Assembly (NCBI GenBank): GCA_016700135.1 | Contig: CP065004.1 | Location: forward strand, 1,050,001-1,082,000 | Reading direction: 5' to 3' | Length of the DNA: 32,000 nt | Origin: Candidatus Saccharimonadota bacterium | GTDB lineage: Bacteria; Patescibacteriota; Microgenomatia; UBA1406; GWC2-37-13 | Shown: positions 20,423-31,230 of the stretch, piece by piece | Numbering within the stretch: the stretch's first letter is position 1 | Layout: every line of letters begins with the position of its first letter | Made by a program: the position numbers and the translations under genes | The notes under the pieces: model-generated | The model's database searches: none | Told to the model about the DNA's origin: nothing | The model's input: only the letters and a program-made list of their open reading frames with translations

Positions 20423-21418
20423 TCATGCTACTCCAACTGCATCTTTTACTTCTCTGAGTGTTTGTTCGGCAATAAGGTTTGCCTTTTCTGCACCTTTTTT
20501 GCGGAGTTCCGAAATACGATCCATATCGTGCTGCAGTTCTTCCTTTCGCTTTTTCATATCGGCAAAATACTCAAGGAAATAATTAAGAAGAATTTTTTTG
20601 ATTTCGACATCACCGATTGTACCATTCTTATACCGCTCTTTCATATCTTCGAGTTTATTCCTCTCATACTCCATAAGCCCGAGATATGTAAATGCAACGT
20701 TTTTGTCCGGATCACCGGGATCAGTGGGATGAATACGGGCAGGATCGGTCGTGACTGACATAATTTGCTTTTTCACAATATCTTCAGAAGCAAAAATCGG
20801 AATATCATTTCCGAGTGATTTACTCATTTTGCGTTGGCCGTCAATACCGGGAACACGGGCAACATCCTTTTTGACAAATAGCTCAGGAACTTTCAGCACG
20901 TCTCCGTATCTGTTGTTGAATGTCCGCGCAATATCCCGGCAGATCTCAACATGCTGTGTCTGATCTTCACCCACAGGGATAACATCGGGATTAAATGCGA
21001 GAATATCAGCAGCCATAAGCACCGGATATGAAAACAGCCCGAAATTTATGGCATCCTGAGACACATCATTCTGCAGCTTATCTTTGTAGGCGTGCATCCT
21101 TTTGAGCTCCGCAACCGTCACTGCGTTATTCAGTATCGTCTGCAAATACGGAATGCTGTGAATATCGCTTTGGATATAAAATGTCGTCTTCTCAGGATCA
21201 AGACCGAAAGCCAGATATTCGATGAAAATATTCATCGTATTTTTATGTACTTCCTCAGGGTCAAAAACATTATTCAGTGCATGAAGATTCGCTATAAAGT
21301 AAAAACAATCACCTTTCTCCTGAAATTCAATGTGAGGTTTGACTGCTCCAAGATAATTTCCGAGATGAAGTCCTTTGGCTGAACTCGGCGTTATTCCAGA
21401 TAGTATTCGTTTTTGCAT
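20423..21418 (-). CDS. trpS: tryptophan--tRNA ligase
   Basis: Class I motifs GLHLGNYLGA (HIGH region) and KMSKS are present. Start at MQKRILSGITPS (21418). The ORF-track extension was rejected. Confidence 0.95.
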   Translation of the reverse strand: MQKRILSGITPSSAKGLHLGNYLGAVKPHIEFQEKGDCFYFIANLHALNNVFDPEEVHKNTMNIFIEYLAFGLDPEKTTFYIQSDIHSIPYLQTILNNAVTVAELKRMHAYKDKLQNDVSQDAINFGLFSYPVLMAADILAFNPDVIPVGEDQTQHVEICRDIARTFNNRYGDVLKVPELFVKKDVARVPGIDGQRKMSKSLGNDIPIFASEDIVKKQIMSVTTDPARIHPTDPGDPDKNVAFTYLGLMEYERNKLEDMKERYKNGTIGDVEIKKILLNYFLEYFADMKKRKEELQHDMDRISELRKKGAEKANLIAEQTLREVKDAVGVA

Positions 21419-21430
21419 ATTACTCTCACC

Positions 21431-21439
21431 ATTATAGCA
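21431..21439 (-). promoter_or_regulatory. extended -10 promoter TGCTATAAT for trpS
   Basis: The minus strand reads cgaTGCTATAATggtgagagtaatATG. Confidence 0.45.
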
Positions 21440-21478
21440 TCGTTTTTCCGTATAATGAAAACATACGAGGTCATTTTT

Positions 21479-23476
21479 ATGGCGAAGAAACCAATTAATT
21501 TTCATTCTTTACTACTGCCGGGAATACTGCTTCTTCTTACTCTTGCGGCCGGCGGAGTGATTTTCTTTGCGCTGAAACAAAGTGATACGTCAGAGAAGCA
21601 CGAAACAATCCAGGATATCCCCACAGAGGCTTCTCAATCGACAAATATTTTGGTTTATGATGTGACAGCCCCTGATACGGCTTTTACGGGAACGGCAAAG
21701 GAAAAAAATACTGAAGCGAGCGTACCTCTTAAGTTCAGAACAATTCGGTCTACTGATTATGACTATGACGACGAACGGGAACAGTACAAGACAACCGTTG
21801 TGCGACTGGCCACACGGACTGATATGACATTAGCGGTAACTATTCCGGGCAACCCGACCAGTGCCGTGCTGAGAAGTCCGACAGCTGATCTCCCGGTGAC
21901 TGTCTCAGGCGGGGTGGTGACGTTTGACTTACCGGCGATACCCGGAAATTATTACTTAAAAACGAATCTGCCGGATGAAGGCGAGTACATCCAAACAATG
22001 GTATTCTGGGTAGATAAACTTGATGACATCACCGTTACCAAGCCGACACAGGCAACTGAAGTATTGCCGGGGCAACCTCTTCAGGCCGTGATCGACGGTG
22101 CTCAACCGGGAACGATGATTTATCTTGCGCCTGGTATCCACTCGGCATCAGGAATTCGAATCGATTCAAAGAATGATATCTCACTTATTTTTCATCCGAA
22201 TGCCGTTTTAAATCAGACTTCAACCGACGAGAAATTTATCGATATAAACAGGTCCTCAAACGTGACAATAAAGGGGCCGGGAGAAATCCGGGCAGCCAAA
22301 GGTAACGGTCAAACAGTCTTATATGCACATGACTCCAACAACCTGATTCTTAACGACTTTTTCATCTATAAAATCCATCATCGTGACGGCTGGACTCTTC
22401 ATGTGTACCGTGATGACACCGTGCAGGTCAACCAGGTGAGAATTATTTCCGGAAATGACGGAACAGATCCTGACAGCTCGAAGAACGTGACTTACAACAA
22501 TATTTACATCGAAGCTCAGGATGATGCTGTAGCGATTAAGACACGGGGAGGAGAAGCAAATACCATTACGCTTAACAACGTTTTAGCAAAATCCGCCGCA
22601 TCGTCTTTGAAAATCGGAGAGGCAACGGTTGATTCTTTGACGACCAATATTACTTTCAAAAACAGTACGGTATTTGACAGTGATCGCGCTCTGGTGGTGA
22701 TGCCACGCGGCAACGGACGGATCGGGAATGTGCTCTATCAAAATATCCGGGTACTTTCGATGAGATCAAATAAGGAAGGGAGAACGATTCGTGTACTGAA
22801 ATCCGCAACGGATACAAGCGGCAGTATATTTGACGGGTCCTCCATTGTGTTTGATAATGTGTATGCAGAGTTTATCAAACCTGCTGAAATCAGACAGGCT
22901 GTGACGATCAAACATTCCAGGTTTGTTTCAAATGGTGGGATGAATATGTTTCCGGATACCTGTCCAACATTGATCAACCTGACTCTCGAAGGAGGGGCGA
23001 CGACAACCTGTACTATCCAAACGGAACCGACGTATACTCCTACTCCGACTGTGGGAGGTACCACACCTACTCCTACTTCTCCTGCTGCTACGGCAACAGT
23101 CCCACCGGGGACAACACCGACTCCTACTGCCGCAGCATCAACTCCGACACCGACAACGACAGCCCCGACCCCTACTCATACGGCTACGCCCACCTTGACT
23201 CCTACTCCTACATTGACGCCGACTCCCACCGCTACCCCGACTCCTACATCCACACCAACTCCGACCAGTACGCCGACTCCAACATCTACTCCGACGCCTA
23301 CATTTACCCCGACTCCCACGTTTACTCTTACTCCTACTCCGACTCAAACACCGGTGCCGACTGCAACATTTACACCTGTACCTGAGCTGAAAGTAAACGG
23401 TCAGCCGCCGGGATTCAATCCTCTCTACTTTGTAGGTATTCCTCTCATGATAATTATTGCGGCGCTGCTAATGTAG
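21479..23476 (+). CDS. secreted right-handed beta-helix protein, GH28 (polygalacturonase)-like, with Pro/Thr linker and C-terminal TM anchor
   Basis: N-terminal signal/TM MAKKPINFHSLLLPGILLLLTLAAGGVIFFAL. SGNDGTDPDSS and QDDAVAIKT resemble the GH28 NTDG and GDDC(I/V)AIK motifs. A ~120-aa (T/P)-rich linker follows, and the protein ends in the hydrophobic YFVGIPLMIIIAALLM. GAGG lies 8 nt upstream of ATG 21479. Confidence 0.7.
   Translation: MAKKPINFHSLLLPGILLLLTLAAGGVIFFALKQSDTSEKHETIQDIPTEASQSTNILVYDVTAPDTAFTGTAKEKNTEASVPLKFRTIRSTDYDYDDEREQYKTTVVRLATRTDMTLAVTIPGNPTSAVLRSPTADLPVTVSGGVVTFDLPAIPGNYYLKTNLPDEGEYIQTMVFWVDKLDDITVTKPTQATEVLPGQPLQAVIDGAQPGTMIYLAPGIHSASGIRIDSKNDISLIFHPNAVLNQTSTDEKFIDINRSSNVTIKGPGEIRAAKGNGQTVLYAHDSNNLILNDFFIYKIHHRDGWTLHVYRDDTVQVNQVRIISGNDGTDPDSSKNVTYNNIYIEAQDDAVAIKTRGGEANTITLNNVLAKSAASSLKIGEATVDSLTTNITFKNSTVFDSDRALVVMPRGNGRIGNVLYQNIRVLSMRSNKEGRTIRVLKSATDTSGSIFDGSSIVFDNVYAEFIKPAEIRQAVTIKHSRFVSNGGMNMFPDTCPTLINLTLEGGATTTCTIQTEPTYTPTPTVGGTTPTPTSPAATATVPPGTTPTPTAAASTPTPTTTAPTPTHTATPTLTPTPTLTPTPTATPTPTSTPTPTSTPTPTSTPTPTFTPTPTFTLTPTPTQTPVPTATFTPVPELKVNGQPPGFNPLYFVGIPLMIIIAALLM
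23021..23383 (+). repeat. low-complexity Pro/Thr-coding repeat (ACNCCN-type periodicity) inside the GH28-like gene
   Basis: The translation is TPTPTxTPTPT repeated. The antisense frames give an artefactual Arg/Ser/Cys ORF. Confidence 0.85.
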
Positions 23477-23493: not shown

Positions 23494-23700
23494 TTATTCA
23501 TCAGGCATGATGCCGCGCTCAGTAAGTTGATTTCTGAGGTTCAGCATCTGATCATATGCATCTGCTGTCGGGTCTCGTTCGGCTGATTCCATCAAAAACG
23601 AATTGTCTGCTTGATGCGGTATGACAGACAACTGCATAAGAAGTATTTGATATCGGAGAAGAAGAATCTGATCCTGATGGGGTAATGAAACATGTTCCAT
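23494..23700 (-). CDS. hypothetical 68-aa protein (weak call)
   Basis: Open frame with an ATG start 11 nt downstream of the tRNA 3' end. There is no SD and no recognisable motif. Confidence 0.25.
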   Translation of the reverse strand: MEHVSLPHQDQILLLRYQILLMQLSVIPHQADNSFLMESAERDPTADAYDQMLNLRNQLTERGIMPDE

Positions 23701-23711
23701 ACGGGAAAGTG

Positions 23712-23785
23712 TGGGCGTATCAGGACTTGAACCTGAGACCTTTACAATGTCAATGTAACGCTCTAGCCAACTGAGCTATACGCCC
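23712..23785 (-). tRNA. tRNA-Val (anticodon GAC)
   Basis: Hand-folded cloverleaf: acceptor GGGCGTA/TACGCCC, D-arm GCTC-AGTTGGCTA-GAGC, anticodon arm TTACA-TTGACAT-TGTAA, variable AGGTC, T-arm TCAGG-TTCAAGT-CCTGA, discriminator A. CCA is not encoded. Confidence 0.9.
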
Positions 23786-24784
23786 TGTGAACGCTCTAGC
23801 CTCCGCCGGCTGGCGCCTCCGCCGGTTGGCGGATGAGCTATACGCCCTGTGAACGCTTCTGGCCTATGAGCCTCCGCCGGTTGGCGGATGAGCTATACGC
23901 CCTACGCCCTGGCGGATGAACGCCCTGTCTAGCCTCCGCCGGTTGGCGGATGAGCTATACGCCCTGTGAACGTTTCTAGCCTCCGCCGGTTGGCGGATGA
24001 GCTATACGCCCTGGCGGATGAACGCTGTGAACGTTTCCAGCCTCCGCCGGTTGGCGGATGAGCTATACGCCCTGTGAACGCTCTAGCCTCCGCCGGTTGG
24101 CGGATGAGCTATACGCCCTGTGAACGCTTCAGCCTCCGCCGGTTGGCGGATGAGCTATACGCCCTGTGAACGCTTGGCGGATGAGCTATACGCCCTGTGA
24201 ACGTTTCCAGCCGGTTGGCGGATGAGCTATACGCCCTGTGAACGCTCTGGCCTCCGCCGGTTGGCGGATGAGCTATACGCCCTGTGAACGCTTCCTCCGG
24301 TTGGCGGATGAGCTATACGCCGGTTGGCCGGATGAGCTATACGCCCTGTGAACGCTCTAGCCTCCGCCGGTTGGCGGATGAGCTATACGCCCTGTGAACG
24401 CTCTAGCCTCCGCCGGTTGGCGGATGAGCTATACGCCCTGTGAACGCTCTGGCCTCCGCCGGTTGGCGGATGAGCTATACGCCCTGTGAACGTTTCTGGC
24501 CTCCGCCGGAACGCTCTAGCCTCCGCCGGTTGGCGGATGAGCTATACGCCCTGTGAACGCTCTCCAGCCTCCGCCGGTTGGCGGATGAGCTATACGCCCT
24601 GTGAACGCTCTAGCCTCCGCCGGTTGGCGGATGAGCTATACGCCCTGTGAACGTTTCTCTAGCCTCCGCCGGTTGGCGGATGAGCTATACGCCCTAACGC
24701 TTCTAGCCTCCGCCGGTTGGCGGATGAGCTATACGCCCTGTGAACGTTTCAGCCTCCGCCGGTTGGCGGATGAGCTATACGCCC
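23786..24784 (-). repeat. tandem array (~21 units, 46-nt consensus) of a tRNA-Val 5'-fragment with a 16-nt GC hairpin insert
   Basis: Consensus on the tRNA strand is GGGCGTATAGCTCA TCCGCCAACCGGCGGA GGCTAGAGCGTT CACA. Twelve units are 44-49 nt and near-perfect. Nine are truncated, partially duplicated or scrambled. There are no spacers. Confidence 0.95.
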
Positions 24785-24804: not shown

Positions 24805-24813
24805 ATTATACCA
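24805..24813 (-). promoter_or_regulatory. extended -10 promoter TGGTATAAT upstream of the repeat array and tRNA-Val
   Basis: The minus strand reads gacggtTGGTATAATataacgtattgattttgaaaGGGCG. It is the only promoter-like element between the upstream gene stop (24839) and the tRNA. Confidence 0.45.
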
Positions 24814-24838: not shown

Positions 24839-25348
24839 TTATTCGGAAGAAGATTCCTGCTGAGGCTGCGAGTACAATGCCACTGCTTTATCAATGACTT
24901 CGCGTGTCGAATATCGCGGATCATATTTTACGGTTTGTATCGTTCCTTCAATCTGCTTTATCACTGCTTCCTCGGGCAGCTGTCCTTTTTTATAATCTCC
25001 GGCGAGGACATATATGGTCGGCTTAATTTCCCCGATAAGATTTGATGCATTTTTTTCTGCATACGATACGACATAATCAACTAATGATACTGATGCCAGA
25101 ACCTTCATGCGATGTTCGAGTGAATTGACAGGCCCTTTAGGATTGGCAAATTGCTTTATCGCGTCATCTGACTGCACACCTGCGAAAACTACATCACCGT
25201 GTGACCTTGCCTGCTCAAGAAAATAAATGTGTCCCGGATGTAGGATATCAAAAACTCCATTTACGAGCACAACTACTTTACTGATTGATTTAAAGTTGTA
25301 CGATAGGTTTGCGGCAAAATCAAGTTCGGCAACTACTTTATTTTCCAT
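24839..25348 (-). CDS. cytidylyltransferase-fold protein resembling HldE/RfaE domain II (D-beta-D-heptose 1-phosphate adenylyltransferase)
   Basis: NGVFDILHPGH (HxGH), PVNSLEHRMKVLASVSLVDYVV and LAGDYK match the layout of the RfaE domain II family. 169 aa, stand-alone. Confidence 0.75.
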   Translation of the reverse strand: MENKVVAELDFAANLSYNFKSISKVVVLVNGVFDILHPGHIYFLEQARSHGDVVFAGVQSDDAIKQFANPKGPVNSLEHRMKVLASVSLVDYVVSYAEKNASNLIGEIKPTIYVLAGDYKKGQLPEEAVIKQIEGTIQTVKYDPRYSTREVIDKAVALYSQPQQESSSE

Positions 25349-26543: not shown

Positions 26544-26550
26544 TTATTAA

Positions 26551-27265
26551 GGCTCTAGACTAGCAGAGTAGTGCTAAACTAGAGGTATGGTTTGTAACAA
26601 TAGGCCGATATCAAAATACAAGAGAAAAAAGATACTATGGTGTTTTGCACACGATCTGAGTGCTACACAGACCTCTGGTATTTTGGGTCTCAACCGCAAT
26701 ACAGTCAACAAATATTACAATAATATTCGTCAACTCATATATCATCACCAAGTGCACCAGATGCAACGATATGTTGGTGGTGAGATAGAAATTGATGAAT
26801 CATACTTTGGACCTCGAAGGATGAGAGGCAAGTCAAGTAAAAGAGGTCGTGGGACGTCATTTAAGCAGGTAGTATTTGGGATATATGAGCGTCAAGGACG
26901 TGTATTTACTCGTATCATTCCAAACTGTAAAAGAAGAACGCTACATGCTGTTATGAAGGGAAAGATTGACTTGAACAGTACTGTATATTCAGATTCGTGG
27001 AGCGGATACAACGGACTTGTTGATGTCGGGTATGACAAACATTTGAGAATCAATCACAAGAAAAATGAGTTCTCAAATACAAAAGGGGTCCATATCAATG
27101 GCATAGAGTCATTCTGGTCCTTTTGTAAAAGACGTCTCGTTAAGTTCAATGGTGTAAAGAAAAACTTTCCATTACACTTGAAAGAGTGTGAATGGAGATG
27201 GAGCAAATCCCCATCGATCCTTTACAATGAACTATTACAAATTGTTAATGTGCTAGTATAGAGCC
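26551..27265 (+). mobile_element. IS1595-family insertion sequence (IS1016-like subgroup), 715 bp
   Basis: Terminal inverted repeats GGCTCTAGACTAGCAGAGTA (26551-26570) and GGCTCTATACTAGCACATTA (complement of 27246-27265) match at 17/20. A single transposase ORF fills the element. No flanking direct repeat was found. Confidence 0.8.
26587..27261 (+). CDS. IS1595-family (IS1016-like) DDE transposase
   Basis: An N-terminal HTH-like segment (KKILWCFAHDLSATQTSGILGLNRNTVNKYYNNIRQ) is followed by IEIDESYFG, GRG..KQVVFGIYERQGRVF, YSDSW.GY and INGIESFWSF, as in IS1016-group transposases. Confidence 0.9.
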   Translation: MVCNNRPISKYKRKKILWCFAHDLSATQTSGILGLNRNTVNKYYNNIRQLIYHHQVHQMQRYVGGEIEIDESYFGPRRMRGKSSKRGRGTSFKQVVFGIYERQGRVFTRIIPNCKRRTLHAVMKGKIDLNSTVYSDSWSGYNGLVDVGYDKHLRINHKKNEFSNTKGVHINGIESFWSFCKRRLVKFNGVKKNFPLHLKECEWRWSKSPSILYNELLQIVNVLV

Positions 27266-27972
27266 AAAGTATTTGACCCGGTAATATTGGTATTAATCAG
27301 GTTGAACAAATCGACCTGTACTCTGCTGTCTCCCGTCATAATAATTCCGTCAGGTATAAGCAACACGTTTTTACCGGTGTCAGCAATTGCCTGAATCGTC
27401 GTCTCCACTTCTGCATCATTTTCGTTGATGGTTTCACTCTGGATTGCAGATTCAGTACTGACCAGTATGTTTTGACAGCTATCGGTTAAATTCAAGATGT
27501 CCTGAGTGTCGAAGTTATGAGATAAGATAAGCATGCAATTACCTGCACCTGTAATATTGGTATTTATAACATTGTCCACAGTGACTACGTTTTCAGCATT
27601 TCCCGTTCGGATAACCGGTGCTGTCAGTGTTACGGTAGGTACCGGTGTTACTTCTTGAACAATCACACTGCTCGGGCTGGCTTCTTCTGTAGATTGTTCC
27701 GATTTGATTAAGTCATCCGTAGTCATATCGATAGTGGGAATCACCGTGGGAGTAATTTCAGTAACCGGGATCGGTGGGGTAGTAATCAATTCTTCAGGTG
27801 TCGGTGAGATTTCTGTCTCAGGTGTGAGACTCGGTTCAGGCACGGGTGTTTCTGTAACTGCTTCTTCGACTGACGGTGTGGGAGAAATATCCGGAGTTTC
27901 CGTGACTGCAAAAACGGCAAGAGGCTGTGCTATCGTCAACGTGAAAATGAGAAGGAATGTTAGGTATTTCAT
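27253..27972 (-). CDS. secreted Pro/Thr/Glu-rich protein with NTNITG/TGDS repeat core; 3' end apparently replaced by the IS
   Basis: Signal peptide MKYLTFLLIFTLTIAQPLAVFA. The last codons and the TAG stop (27253-27265) lie inside the IS right inverted repeat. The second repeat (VDLFNLINTNITGSNT) breaks off where the first continues for ~90 aa. Confidence 0.6.
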   Translation of the reverse strand: MKYLTFLLIFTLTIAQPLAVFAVTETPDISPTPSVEEAVTETPVPEPSLTPETEISPTPEELITTPPIPVTEITPTVIPTIDMTTDDLIKSEQSTEEASPSSVIVQEVTPVPTVTLTAPVIRTGNAENVVTVDNVINTNITGAGNCMLILSHNFDTQDILNLTDSCQNILVSTESAIQSETINENDAEVETTIQAIADTGKNVLLIPDGIIMTGDSRVQVDLFNLINTNITGSNTLALY

Positions 27973-28078
27973 AGTCAATTCCGTAATTTATTTCAGGTCT
28001 TTTTAGTAAAAAATCTGAAATAAACAACGTTTCTTACAGACTGGCTTGTCCGAACAAGGTACAATATCTTATCTTTCC

Positions 28079-28121: not shown

Positions 28122-29054
28122 TTAACTCAACCAAAAGAAAAGCATATCCATAATATTTCCGATAAAGGAACTATTTGAATTGCCTTCCGCAGCAGAGCCA
28201 ACTTGTACACCTGCTCCACCAGTCATCATTCCGGTTCCGCCGATGTTGTCATCAGCGTCATTGTGACCTGAATTGGTATGTGTCATGATACTTTGCAATA
28301 CAGTCATCAAATTTGAACTCGATGAGCTCATAGATGTACTTGTATGTACATTTGTGTCTGTATCAAGATCATCTCCCGTGTTAACGATACTGGTCATATT
28401 CCCTCCTTCGTGAGAAGAAAGTGAACTCATTCCCCCACCAAGTCCGATTGCTGTTGTGTTGTCATTGACATCAACGTCAAAACCAACGGCAGCAGCAGCG
28501 TTACCTGTGGTAAGAGTCGGTCCAGAACCAATATTGTCATCAGCATCATTATGTCCGGTGTTAGCATGAATGTTTGCAGCTTGTTGGACGAATGCAGAAT
28601 TCATACTGTTTACTGAAACATTCGTGGTAGAATTTGCAGAAGTATCAATATCTGCATCATCTCCCGTGTTGACGATATCCGTCAAATTGGAATCACCGTC
28701 TCCGCTACTCACTGCAATAGCTGTCTGATTCTCATTTGCATCGACATCTAGACCGATTTGTGAAAGTGCGCTACCTGTCATAATTGACGTTCCGGCACCA
28801 TTCAAACTGATATTTCCGTCAGCAGAATTGTGACCAGTGTTAACATGTGCCTGTACTTGTTGAGTAATGGCAGCTACGTTGGTATTTGACACATTCACAT
28901 TTGTTGATGTTGATGAGGAAGTTGTCACCTGTGCATCATCACCGCTGTTGACGATATTTGTGGTATCGGAAGCGGCAAAAGCTGCCGGTGTTGCAACCAG
29001 CCCCATTATTGCGAGCATTGAGATTCCAGTTAGTAACATTTTCTTATTTAGCAT
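28122..29054 (-). CDS. secreted repeat protein, three ~95-aa NTGDD...NTGHN.AD.NI...TG.A modules
   Basis: Signal peptide ...LVATPAAFA|AS. ATG 29054 is preceded by GGGGGTGA at 9-nt spacing. It is a paralogue of the upstream 682-aa protein. Confidence 0.8.
   Translation of the reverse strand: MLNKKMLLTGISMLAIMGLVATPAAFAASDTTNIVNSGDDAQVTTSSSTSTNVNVSNTNVAAITQQVQAHVNTGHNSADGNISLNGAGTSIMTGSALSQIGLDVDANENQTAIAVSSGDGDSNLTDIVNTGDDADIDTSANSTTNVSVNSMNSAFVQQAANIHANTGHNDADDNIGSGPTLTTGNAAAAVGFDVDVNDNTTAIGLGGGMSSLSSHEGGNMTSIVNTGDDLDTDTNVHTSTSMSSSSSNLMTVLQSIMTHTNSGHNDADDNIGGTGMMTGGAGVQVGSAAEGNSNSSFIGNIMDMLFFWLS
28167..28961 (-). repeat. three tandem ~93-96-codon protein repeat modules (approximate bounds)
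   Basis: N(S/T)GDD occurs at aa 40, 133 and 229, and N(T/S)GHN(S/D)AD(G/D)NI at aa 76, 169 and 265 (ORF-track numbering). Confidence 0.6.
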
Positions 29055-29062
29055 ATTTCTAT

Positions 29063-31111
29063 TCACCCCCTTTCATCAATTTTGAACGTATAACTTCTGG
29101 AAGCGTATGTAGTTTTCCTTAATACTCCGCCGGAAAGCAAGACTGCGAGCGATGCAAGCAAAAAGGAAATCATATCTTCAGGACCCGTGGTAGGAAGTCT
29201 GCTTACGGATGCTCCAAGCACATCTCCCGTGGTGAAGGGAACGCCGCCTTTATATCCTGTTGTAGATGTCGAAGCCAGTGTTGTTCCTCCACCGCCGGTT
29301 TTGGTTCCTCCGTTATTTCCCCCGTTGCCTGTCGGTGTTGTGGTCGGTGTTGCGGTAGGATTCGGTCCGGATGTCGGTGTAGGTGTGACTGTAGGGTCCT
29401 GAGTCGGTGTGGGTGTGGGTGACGGATCGGCTTTTGCTATAACCTGACAGCCAACTTCAGTTTTGTTTGTATTTGCATTGGCCTCAGTTTGCACGGCCAG
29501 AACAGCGTCGCCTGTCCCGATAATACCTGTCTGACTGCCGATATTTCTGCTTGAGGTATTGGATCCAGTGTCTACCTGTCCTGTGATTTTTTGGACAAGG
29601 AATGCTTTATTGGTATTTGTCACGGAAATATCTGTTGTACTTGTTGTTGAAGTATCAGTCTGGAGATTGTCTCCGGTGTTTATGATTTCCGTATTTTGTC
29701 CTGAAGTTCCGCATGCTGTATATAGCGGATCACTACTGCTGCTGTCAGCGACCGGGTCGTTTGTTTCTTCCTTTAGGGTTGCGGAATTTTCATTCGCTTT
29801 TGCGTCCATTTTCACAATGACGGCAGCGTCTCCAGTAAATATGACCCCTGCGTCGCCGCCGAAGCTAATATTTCTGTTGGCCGTATTATATCCGGTATTG
29901 GCTACGGCATTGACCTGTTGATTGATTGCAGCCTTGTTTGTGTTTGTGACATCAGTATTAGTTGTGTCAGATGAAGATGTATCTGAAGTTGTATTGTCTC
30001 CGGTGTTGAGTATATCGGTACTGTTTTGGCTACTGTTTCCGTTGTTTGCAATCGTTGTGCTGTTGTCGTTTGCATCTGCTTTCATGTCTACATATACCAG
30101 TGCATCTCCGGTTTGAATTATTCCCGCACTTCCCGCAAGTCCGATATTGCGGTCAGCATGATTGTGCCCTGTATTTGCCATGCAGAGTGCTTGACCTGCT
30201 CCGCAGCTTTGTGAGATGAGTGCAGAGTTACTGTTCCTTATCGTGGTCGAGCGTTGCTTCATCAATCTGGAAGCAAAGTCATTATTGTCTCCGGTGTTTA
30301 CGAGGATGATAGATGCTCCGCTGCCCGGTCCGTTGCCATTACTGTCTCCCCCGATAAGGATGACACTTCCGTTTGCAGTCGCGAGAAAGTTGGTAGAGGT
30401 ATATGCCGAACCTGTCAGTATAACTCCGGCACTCCCGCCGATACTGATGTTTCCGTCTGCGGTATTGTGTCCGGTATTAGCCTCAGTCTGAGCCTGCTGA
30501 TTTATTACCGTTTCATTGTTATTGTTTACCATTGTTAACGTTGTATTTTGCGATGATGATGTCTTAGTCATACCGTTACCGGTATTAGTTGTATCGGAAG
30601 AAGTATTTGAAGTAGCCCCTGAGTATCCAATGGATGTTGTATTTTTATTCGTATCTGCTTTTGCGGTTGTCTGAACTCCGGCATTCCCTGTCACAATAAT
30701 TCCTGCATTACCGCCGAAACTGATATTTTTACCCGCTTCATTGTGTCCGGTATTGGCCGTTGCCGTCACCTGTTGATTGACGGCAGCTGTATTGTTGTTA
30801 TCTACTGCAGTTTCGGATGTACTCTCTGATTGATTTGTTTCCGAAACGTTATCTCCTGTATTAACCGTCGTATTTGACTGCTCTTGAGTAGGTTGTGTGG
30901 TTTCCTGTGTATTATTTTGTTCCTGATTTGAGGTTTGAAGTTCCTGTTGGGCCTGTGTTTGTATCTGTTCGGTCAGCGTATTCTTATCAGGAGGAGGGGT
31001 TTCTTCGGCCCAGGCGATGGGTAAAGGAAACAGAATCAAACTCAATGTAAGGTAACTAAATAAAGAGAATGAAACTGCTGTTCTGATAAATTTTGCTATA
31101 TGTATTTTCAT
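29063..31111 (-). CDS. LPXTG-anchored cell-surface protein with five ~91-109-aa NTGDN...NTGHN...TGDA modules
   Basis: Signal peptide ...LFPLPIAWA|EE, a Q/T/N/E-rich spacer, five modules, a P/T linker and then a C-terminal sorting signal: LPTTG (29186-29200), hydrophobic ISFLLASLAVLLSGGVL and basic RK. ATG 31111 is preferred over the TTG at 31123. Confidence 0.85.
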   Translation of the reverse strand: MKIHIAKFIRTAVSFSLFSYLTLSLILFPLPIAWAEETPPPDKNTLTEQIQTQAQQELQTSNQEQNNTQETTQPTQEQSNTTVNTGDNVSETNQSESTSETAVDNNNTAAVNQQVTATANTGHNEAGKNISFGGNAGIIVTGNAGVQTTAKADTNKNTTSIGYSGATSNTSSDTTNTGNGMTKTSSSQNTTLTMVNNNNETVINQQAQTEANTGHNTADGNISIGGSAGVILTGSAYTSTNFLATANGSVILIGGDSNGNGPGSGASIILVNTGDNNDFASRLMKQRSTTIRNSNSALISQSCGAGQALCMANTGHNHADRNIGLAGSAGIIQTGDALVYVDMKADANDNSTTIANNGNSSQNSTDILNTGDNTTSDTSSSDTTNTDVTNTNKAAINQQVNAVANTGYNTANRNISFGGDAGVIFTGDAAVIVKMDAKANENSATLKEETNDPVADSSSSDPLYTACGTSGQNTEIINTGDNLQTDTSTTSTTDISVTNTNKAFLVQKITGQVDTGSNTSSRNIGSQTGIIGTGDAVLAVQTEANANTNKTEVGCQVIAKADPSPTPTPTQDPTVTPTPTSGPNPTATPTTTPTGNGGNNGGTKTGGGGTTLASTSTTGYKGGVPFTTGDVLGASVSRLPTTGPEDMISFLLASLAVLLSGGVLRKTTYASRSYTFKIDERG
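29456..30865 (-). repeat. five tandem protein repeat modules (approximate bounds)
   Basis: NTG(D/N)(N/G) occurs at aa 88, 179, 276, 373 and 482. (N/D)TG(H/Y/S)N occurs at aa 124, 216, 317, 409 and 519 (ORF-track numbering). Confidence 0.6.
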
Positions 31112-31230
31112 AATAAATAACAAAGCTATTTACAAATTTTGTTATGGGGTAATCATAAGGTTGCTTCATAAAGATAGTGAAAGACTCTTATAAAAAAACA
31201 GTAAGGAAGTGAATGATAACTGATCCAAGG

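Follow-up and report, generated by a model that had tools for sequence, protein, structure and literature searches.

The circular chromosome CP065004 (1,448,136 bp) is that of Kalu_18-Q3-R12-55_MAXAC.194_uni, a Candidatus Roizmanbacteria genome (Singleton et al. 2021, Supplementary Data 3; PMC8012365). It was recovered from Kalundborg wastewater (sample Kalu_18-Q3-R12-55) and is placed by GTDB in Microgenomatia; UBA1406; GWC2-37-13; g__UBA1450 (PMC8012365). We analyzed one 32-kb stretch of this chromosome, positions 1,050,001 to 1,082,000, which we call the window. Within it, 999 nt immediately 5' of an intact tRNA-Val(GAC) gene are occupied by a tandem array whose repeat unit combines pieces of that same tRNA with a short GC-rich hairpin. 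An initial annotation had laid out a promoter, the array and the intact tRNA gene on the minus strand, with the array at 23786-24784, and both the coordinates and the anatomy hold. Taken together, our results point to a young, non-coding minisatellite, confined to one lineage and derived from the 5' third of tRNA-Val(GAC), as the most likely nature of the array. The features of the locus, in window coordinates and in the direction of the tRNA gene, are as follows.

24805..24813, minus strand: promoter-like extended -10 element TGgTATAAT, a reading of the sequence; putative promoter
23786..24784, minus strand: tandem array of the tRNA-Val-derived hairpin repeat, 999 nt, 20 units plus a 7-nt stub, with a 46-nt unit
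24600..24645, minus strand: example of a consensus unit, from unit splitting (tRNA nt 1-14, TCCGCC-AACC-GGCGGA, tRNA nt 18-29, CACA)
Unit-unit junction sequence: CGTTCACAGGGCGTATAGCTCATCC
23786..24072, minus strand: tRNA-proximal and most degenerate part of the array (units 16-21, with patchwork units, the 7-nt stub and partial duplications)
23711..23785, minus strand: intact tRNA-Val(GAC), parent of the repeat (ARAGORN; Rfam RF00005, 72.3 bits)

Anatomy and predicted fold of the array

We delimited the units by splitting the minus strand, from 24784 to 23786, at GGGCGTA. The repeats are indeed tandem, as the initial annotation stated, and its count of about 21 units is revised to 20 plus the 7-nt stub. 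The units span 31-67 nt, and eight of the 20 are exactly 46 nt long. Tandem Repeats Finder likewise gave a period of 46, with 91-97% matches in the clean stretches. Four units are identical to the consensus GGGCGTATAGCTCA-TCCGCCAACCGGCGGA-GGCTAGAGCGTT-CACA, in which nt 1-14 of tRNA-Val are followed by a 16-nt GC hairpin, tRNA nt 18-29 and CACA. Unit splitting bore out the earlier alignment of this consensus with the tRNA. Unit nt 1-14 are identical to tRNA nt 1-14, which comprise the 5' acceptor strand, nt 8-9 and the 5' strand of the D-stem, and unit nt 31-42 are identical to tRNA nt 18-29. Between these two blocks, the GTT of the tRNA D-loop is replaced in the unit by TCCGCC-AACC-GGCGGA. The terminal CACA may represent one inserted C followed by tRNA nt 30-32 (ACA), or it may represent C72-A73 joined to the first two bases of the trailer, since the gene ends GCCC-ACAC. 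The array directly abuts its intact parent gene, in phase with it.

The 16-nt hairpin is confined to the array. The window contains 17 exact copies and two more with 1-2 mismatches, where 0.02 would be expected by chance, and every copy lies within the array on the minus strand. The array is also a GC island, at 62.9% against 42.8% in the remainder of the window, close to the approximate 60% and 40% first estimated. The longest stretch free of stop codons is 67 codons, in agreement with the earlier description of the array as non-coding. Likewise, no unit is a tRNA gene. ARAGORN and Rfam each detected a single tRNA, tRNA-Val(GAC), and with the threshold relaxed to E<=10 the units still gave no match to the tRNA model or to other Rfam families. 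They lack an anticodon arm, a T-arm and a 3' acceptor strand, and their predicted fold is one hairpin.

This hairpin involves more than the 16-nt insert. The complete 46-nt unit is predicted to form a single long imperfect hairpin of -24.3 kcal/mol (z = -4.8), and none of 200 shuffled sequences was equally stable. In the predicted structure an outer stem extends from G1-C43 through U6-G38, a middle stem extends from U8-A35 through U12-G31, a 6-bp GC clamp closes the AACC loop, and a 3-nt ACA linker follows the hairpin. The same topology is predicted for nt 1-32 of the native tRNA, although it is weaker there (-9.1 kcal/mol). Two elements of the unit that are not tRNA sequence, the GC clamp and an extra C paired with G1, extend a quasi-palindrome that the tRNA already contains. 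The full predicted fold is retained in 13 of the 20 units. When the full transcript was folded without constraints, the acceptor 5' strands of the units competed for the single 3' acceptor strand of the tRNA.

The units do not vary evenly along their length. Positions 1-21 are essentially invariant across all 20 units, and nearly all of the variation falls at positions 34-38, in the purine tract GGC-T-AGAG-CG, which differs in the majority of units and where the variation consists of A/G and T/C swaps and of insertions or deletions of 1-3 nt. Adenine mutagenesis of the type found in diversity-generating retroelements was ruled out as the source of this tract, because G and T vary too. "Correction" of the quasi-palindrome was also ruled out, because the variants are not made complementary to the 5' arm. 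The degenerate units at 23786..24072 reflect either microhomology-type rearrangement or a consensus artifact of an unpolished long-read bridge.

Upstream of the array, a 20-nt leader (24804-24785) ending ...TTTTGAAA separates the -10 element from unit 1. A simple sigma-70 scan missed TGgTATAAT because the -35 region is poor. The element is 100% identical in L001, the most similar of the related loci discussed below, and in eight different genomic contexts the same tRNA is preceded, at a distance of 7-30 nt, by a box of the TGnTAnAAT type. No terminator-like site was found on the transcribed strand of the array. From the promoter-like box upstream and the lack of a terminator within the array, we infer that the array forms part of the tRNA-Val(GAC) transcript, as its 5' leader. 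A candidate internal promoter within the units (TTCACA-5 nt-TATAGC) was ruled out by its wrong spacing. As a separate observation, the extended -10-like box occurs as the variants TGGTATAAT, TGGTATACT, TGGTAGAAT or TGGTAAAAT, 7-30 nt upstream of an identical tRNA-Val, in the otherwise unrelated intergenic contexts of L001, L003 and L010-L014. This pattern suggests that a promoter type with a weak -35 may be conserved among these Microgenomatia.

Relatives and comparable elements

The locus without the array can be seen in related genomes. Four syntenic loci (L001, L003, L014 and L015) have the same promoter and leader, which lead directly into an identical tRNA-Val gene. The flank protein is 92% identical to that of the window in L001, 81% in L003 and 70% in both L014 and L015. 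By BLASTN, the window and L001 are collinear at ~91% nucleotide identity, and the surplus of the window over L001 at this site is exactly the 999-nt array (window 23786/24771 versus L001 7430/7444). The second difference between the two sequences is a separate replacement associated with an insertion sequence (IS).

To find further relatives, we used the 3' 45 nt of the tRNA as a query against 185,579 species-representative genomes (GTDB). This search returned nine loci, each with a single tRNA copy behind a TGnTAnAAT-type box, and none of the nine has an array. The tRNA-Val sequence is identical in seven of them, including L001/L007 and L003/L009, as it is in the additional contigs L014 and L015; L006 and L008 differ by one base. 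Among the related loci that are syntenic or carry the exact tRNA-Val, five third-party-annotation metagenome-assembled genomes (L005, L007, L009, L012 and L013) are titled "uncultured Gammaproteobacteria bacterium", which looks like a taxonomic mislabel.

The repeat unit itself was equally restricted. A gapped unit, in which any insert of 8-30 nt was allowed, had no match in the GTDB species representatives, the hairpin core had none in the JGI metagenomes or IMG/VR, and the unit-unit junction had none in the JGI metagenomes. Tandem Repeats Finder detected no comparable array in 18 related loci. Because the relatives are array-free and the scans for the unit are empty, we conclude that the array is a derived insertion in a single lineage. 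By the sequence comparison, it arose after ~9% nucleotide divergence from the nearest sampled relative.

Does the array resemble any element that has already been described? The initial annotation recognized none with this architecture, a statement that proves too strong in light of two precedents. The first is found in plastids, where arrays of trnF(GAA) pseudogenes have been reported in Solanaceae, Brassicaceae, Asteraceae and others. In Solanaceae, the functional gene is directly preceded on its 5' side by 1-7 copies of 32-73 bp; such arrays are lineage-specific, lie near sigma-70-type promoter motifs and have been attributed to duplication and slippage (PMC3786074). In layout, these are the nearest described counterpart of the array, which also consists of lineage-specific, head-to-tail partial tRNA copies directly 5' of an intact gene. 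The plastid units contain mainly anticodon, T and D domains and usually lack acceptor strands, whereas the array in the window has ~20 copies with the 5' acceptor strand, the D-arm and a foreign 16-nt GC hairpin, and it resides on a chromosome of the candidate phyla radiation (CPR). Among the plastid arrays, those of Brassicaceae have a few more copies than those of Solanaceae.

The second precedent is the tyrT-tyrV locus of E. coli, where 3.1 copies of a 178-bp repeat follow tyrV. Each copy contains the 3' 19 nt of tRNA-Tyr, and the repeats overlap the annotated small RNA RttR (rtT RNA, tpr). As in the window, tandem repeats lie next to a bacterial tRNA gene and bear a fragment of it, and the E. 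coli repeats are co-transcribed with the tRNA. They carry a 3' fragment, lie downstream, number only three copies of a long unit and are conserved in E. coli. In contrast, the array described here carries a 5' fragment, lies upstream, has ~20 copies of a 46-nt unit and is found in one genome only. It nevertheless shares the defining traits of partial-tRNA arrays: the units contain tRNA-identical segments and are non-functional, the parent gene is intact, and the array is lineage-specific.

The array may also fall within a broader class. Bacterial variable-number tandem repeats, or minisatellites, such as the mycobacterial interspersed repetitive units (MIRU), are non-coding, have periods of tens of base pairs, and expand and contract by slipped-strand mispairing. 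As a non-coding tandem repeat with a period of 46, the array resembles this class, although MIRU-type units form dispersed families with many loci per genome, whereas the array occupies a single locus and takes its unit from the adjacent gene. Repetitive extragenic palindromic (REP) sequences and the bacterial interspersed mosaic elements (BIME) built from them are similar in that they are short, GC-rich imperfect palindromes clustered in intergenic transcribed DNA. REPs are scattered in hundreds of copies whose orientation often alternates, and they are associated with RAYT transposases, whereas the array consists of direct, tRNA-derived copies at one locus, with no copy outside it in the window, the 18 related loci or the public collections.

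Three kinds of element were ruled out. ToxI arrays, which belong to type III toxin-antitoxin systems, consist of a promoter followed by spacer-less, structured RNA repeats of ~36 nt that are cut into monomers. These systems need a ToxN/AbiQ-type endoribonuclease gene directly downstream, whereas the array is followed by the tRNA and then by an open reading frame (ORF) of 68 aa. There is no toxin gene, and the 68-aa ORF predates the array, which excludes a ToxI/ToxN system. An array of clustered regularly interspaced short palindromic repeats (CRISPR) is excluded, as the initial annotation held, because the units abut without spacers and there are no cas genes in the window. Finally, duplication of the attachment site of an integrative element is excluded by the absence of an integrase, by the collinearity of the flanks and by the fact that the 5' part of the tRNA is repeated.

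Origin of the array and the alternatives

How could a tRNA gene give rise to about 20 hairpin units? We favor a minisatellite that grew by slippage from a partial copy of the tRNA-Val gene made by duplication, an origin that was among those first proposed and that we regard as reasonably probable. In the initial step, a short tandem duplication would have copied tRNA nt 1 to ~32 or, alternatively, nt 1-29 joined to the 3'-end C72-A73-CA. This quasi-palindromic copy would then have gained the 16-nt GC clamp in its former D-loop and the C that pairs with G1, giving a stable 43-nt hairpin. Slipped-strand mispairing or unequal sister-strand exchange would subsequently have raised the number of copies to ~20, with slippage occurring first between the 14-nt and 12-nt blocks that the copy has in common with the tRNA gene, and afterwards between complete units. 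The hairpin would aid this expansion by stabilizing slipped intermediates. Once in place, the array would be transcribed by read-through from the tRNA's conserved promoter, giving a leader ~1 kb long with extensive structure, and RNase P would release the tRNA at the last junction. The tRNA could still fold because each unit would sequester its own copy of the acceptor 5' strand.

An origin by duplication and slippage is supported by the derivation of the unit from the adjacent gene, by the array-free ancestral state and by the absence of associated machinery. The array gives no sign of a function of its own; at most, it would alter the amount of tRNA-Val(GAC). Several points weigh on the other side. 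The model does not account for the 16-nt insert, which has no other copy in the window or in the 18 related loci. The variation is strongly uneven between positions 1-21 and 34-38, which simple neutral decay does not predict; a hot spot of slippage, selection acting on the remainder of the unit, or noise from sequencing has to be invoked. The array is carried by one genome only, and its transcription and processing are deduced from sequence. Moreover, the gene behind this structured 1-kb leader may be the only one for tRNA-Val(GAC) in a streamlined genome of 1.45 Mb; such a leader looks costly, and therefore room is left for a function.

What might such a function be? Cleavage of the leader at every boundary between units, for instance by RNase P on the 5' side of each G1, could yield ~20 stable hairpin RNAs per transcript. 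Through their likeness to the acceptor/D-arm side of tRNA-Val, these RNAs could engage a tRNA-binding enzyme or nuclease as a decoy or sponge. A functional RNA array of this kind would account for the promoter directly upstream and the lack of a terminator within the array, for the very stable unit hairpin (z = -4.8), which both the GC clamp and the extra C strengthen, and for the 5' arm that is invariant across all units. Each unit also has a G1-C closing pair and an ACA tail, reminiscent of C72-A73-CA in the tRNA, and E. coli RttR illustrates that a repeat RNA co-transcribed with a tRNA can be stable. We nonetheless consider this explanation unlikely. The idea of a decoy or of 5'-half RNAs is weakened because the array is absent from every relative, including those with an identical tRNA and promoter, and from all collections scanned, so that there is no conservation. 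Additionally, there is no partner gene in the neighborhood, a T-to-C change at position 34 disrupts the A9-U34 pair and is not compensated, and seven of the 20 units have lost the full fold. A more specific version, to which we give very little credence, is a newborn RNA gene cluster in which RNase P would cut at every G1, because the units keep the G1-C pair followed by ACA, and release ~20 stable 46-nt tRNA-mimic hairpins per transcript. These could titrate a factor that binds tRNA, for instance a nuclease directed at the anticodon or acceptor, a modification enzyme or even RNase P. If true, the locus would be a natural case of a tRNA fragment evolving into a decoy array. The array might instead act as a contingency-type regulator, in which the gain and loss of units by slippage changes the leader and tunes the supply of tRNA-Val(GAC) between cells or strains. 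Its position between promoter and tRNA, the heterogeneous unit lengths and the known tendency of hairpin repeats to slip are in keeping with such a role, but no relative has even a one- or two-unit version, and known contingency loci consist of much shorter repeats in promoters or ORFs; we give this proposal a small chance of being right. The least credible possibility, also raised by the initial annotation, is that the array is the target or scar of a site-specific recombinase or mobile element that used tRNA-Val as its attachment site. tRNA genes are common integration sites, and an IS1595-family transposase gene lies 1.8 kb away. However, there is no integrase or island, gene order matches that of the relatives on both sides, and the units abut without inserted cargo. 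Integrative elements duplicate the 3' part of a tRNA, whereas here the 5' part is repeated, and the IS belongs to an insertion/deletion distinct from the array, to which nothing in its sequence connects it. We therefore set the recombinase explanation aside.

Could the array instead have been created, in whole or for much of its length, by the hybrid assembly? The genome was covered at 19.5x by Illumina and 14.4x by Nanopore reads, "_uni" genomes were assembled with Unicycler v0.4.6 (--no_correct --no_pilon --mode bold), and later polishing is described for the Flye genomes only, not for the Unicycler metagenome-assembled genomes (PMC8012365). Unicycler bridges single-copy contigs with long reads and normally takes the bridge sequence from a path in the short-read graph; where there is no such path it inserts raw long-read consensus, and bold mode accepts low-quality bridges (PMC5481147). 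Moreover, the patchwork units near the tRNA and the context-confined A/G, T/C and small-indel changes resemble unpolished Nanopore consensus. Set against this, a bridge cannot be built without long reads that are anchored in the unique sequence on each side, the two junctions are exact and in phase, the short-read graph would run straight through if there were no array, as in L001, and intact ORFs that match those of relatives span the rest of the window. The 16 nt and the C of the unit cannot have come from mis-joining of the tRNA gene, because they are absent elsewhere in the window. An assembly artifact is thus improbable as an explanation of the array. Given the need for reads anchored in both flanks, the 17 bases of the unit that are absent elsewhere in the window and the exact junctions, we consider the array and its ~1 kb length very probably real.

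The differences between units call for more caution, and here the concern of the initial annotation about the assembly, unlikely for the array as a whole, is a real one. The chance that much of the unit-to-unit variation is read noise is roughly even or slightly better. Context-specific errors in one k-mer context, possibly a methylated motif, would give the pattern at positions 34-38 in unpolished 14x Nanopore sequence. As a practical matter, fine-scale "variation" in the repeats of unpolished hybrid assemblies is unfit to be taken as biology.

The surrounding genes and the meaning of the array

The array lies in the core chromosome. The window encodes TrpRS, ThrRS, both the alpha and beta subunits of PheRS, IF3 and L20, along with RNase III, NusB, RecG, PBP1, threonine synthase and type IV pilus genes. 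Pfam and PADLOC searches of 30 window ORFs gave no match to an integrase, a reverse transcriptase, a ToxN-like protein or a defense system, and none to a Cas family save for a weak Cas3-like_C_2 overlap inside RecG. The genes on either side of the array and tRNA are as follows.

24839..25348, minus strand: cytidylyltransferase-like gene, 169 aa, upstream (Pfam PF01467; 100% identical to QQS43602.1)
23494..23700, minus strand: small conserved ORF, 68 aa, a neighbor outside the repeat that starts 10 nt after the tRNA 3' end

The stop codon of the cytidylyltransferase-like gene lies 25 nt before the -10 box. The 68-aa ORF, which has no Pfam or PADLOC match, is also present in the array-free L001 and L003, where it is annotated as 72 aa. 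It may be co-transcribed with tRNA-Val, and a convergent gene comes after it.

The only mobile-element gene in the window is the transposase mentioned above. ORF 26587-27261 (plus strand) encodes an IS1595-family (ISXO2-like DDE) transposase within the region 26550-27266. At this site L001 has ~1.7 kb containing most of a 665-aa CLIPPER-domain gene and a 145-aa ORF, and the 241-aa ORF beside the transposase (27253-27978, minus strand) resembles a truncated remnant. The replacement is a second lineage-specific rearrangement less than 2 kb from the array.

Three other observations concern the remainder of the window. ORF 21413-23476 codes for a 687-aa protein with a membrane anchor at its C-terminus and a weak match that is glycosyl hydrolase 28-like. 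Inside this ORF, tandem repeats of 18 and 24 nt at 23198-23343 (plus strand) specify a linker rich in Pro and Thr (TPTPTxTPTPT...) close to the C-terminus. The orthologs in L001, L014 and L015 share these repeats, which are therefore ordinary coding repeats. A permissive Rfam scan yielded, besides the tRNA and two chance matches, a sub-threshold match to the Plastid-ycf2 5'UTR on the strand antisense to the tRNA (23711-23785, plus strand; 27.3 bits, gathering score 65.7). We judged it spurious because that model evidently overlaps tRNA-like sequence. Finally, the region 28122-31123 (minus strand) encodes two large secreted or anchored proteins of 314 and 686 aa with no Pfam match. Both are rich in Asn, Thr and Ser, contain repeated "NTGHN.A..NI" segments and are conserved in L001, L003 and L014. 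The two look like surface proteins specific to the CPR, of unassigned function.

Why does a single tRNA-Val array matter? On present evidence the array is unusual in appearance yet ordinary in kind. It belongs with tRNA-derived tandem pseudogenes and minisatellites, and it reveals no new system. If read data confirm it, the locus would offer a clean snapshot of a tRNA gene spawning a structured tandem array in a streamlined CPR genome. The value of this snapshot is that the ancestral state is preserved in sister lineages and that the parent gene is still attached. The array would thus be a useful example for studying the birth of minisatellites, hairpin-promoted slippage and the length of 5' leader that a bacterial tRNA can tolerate.

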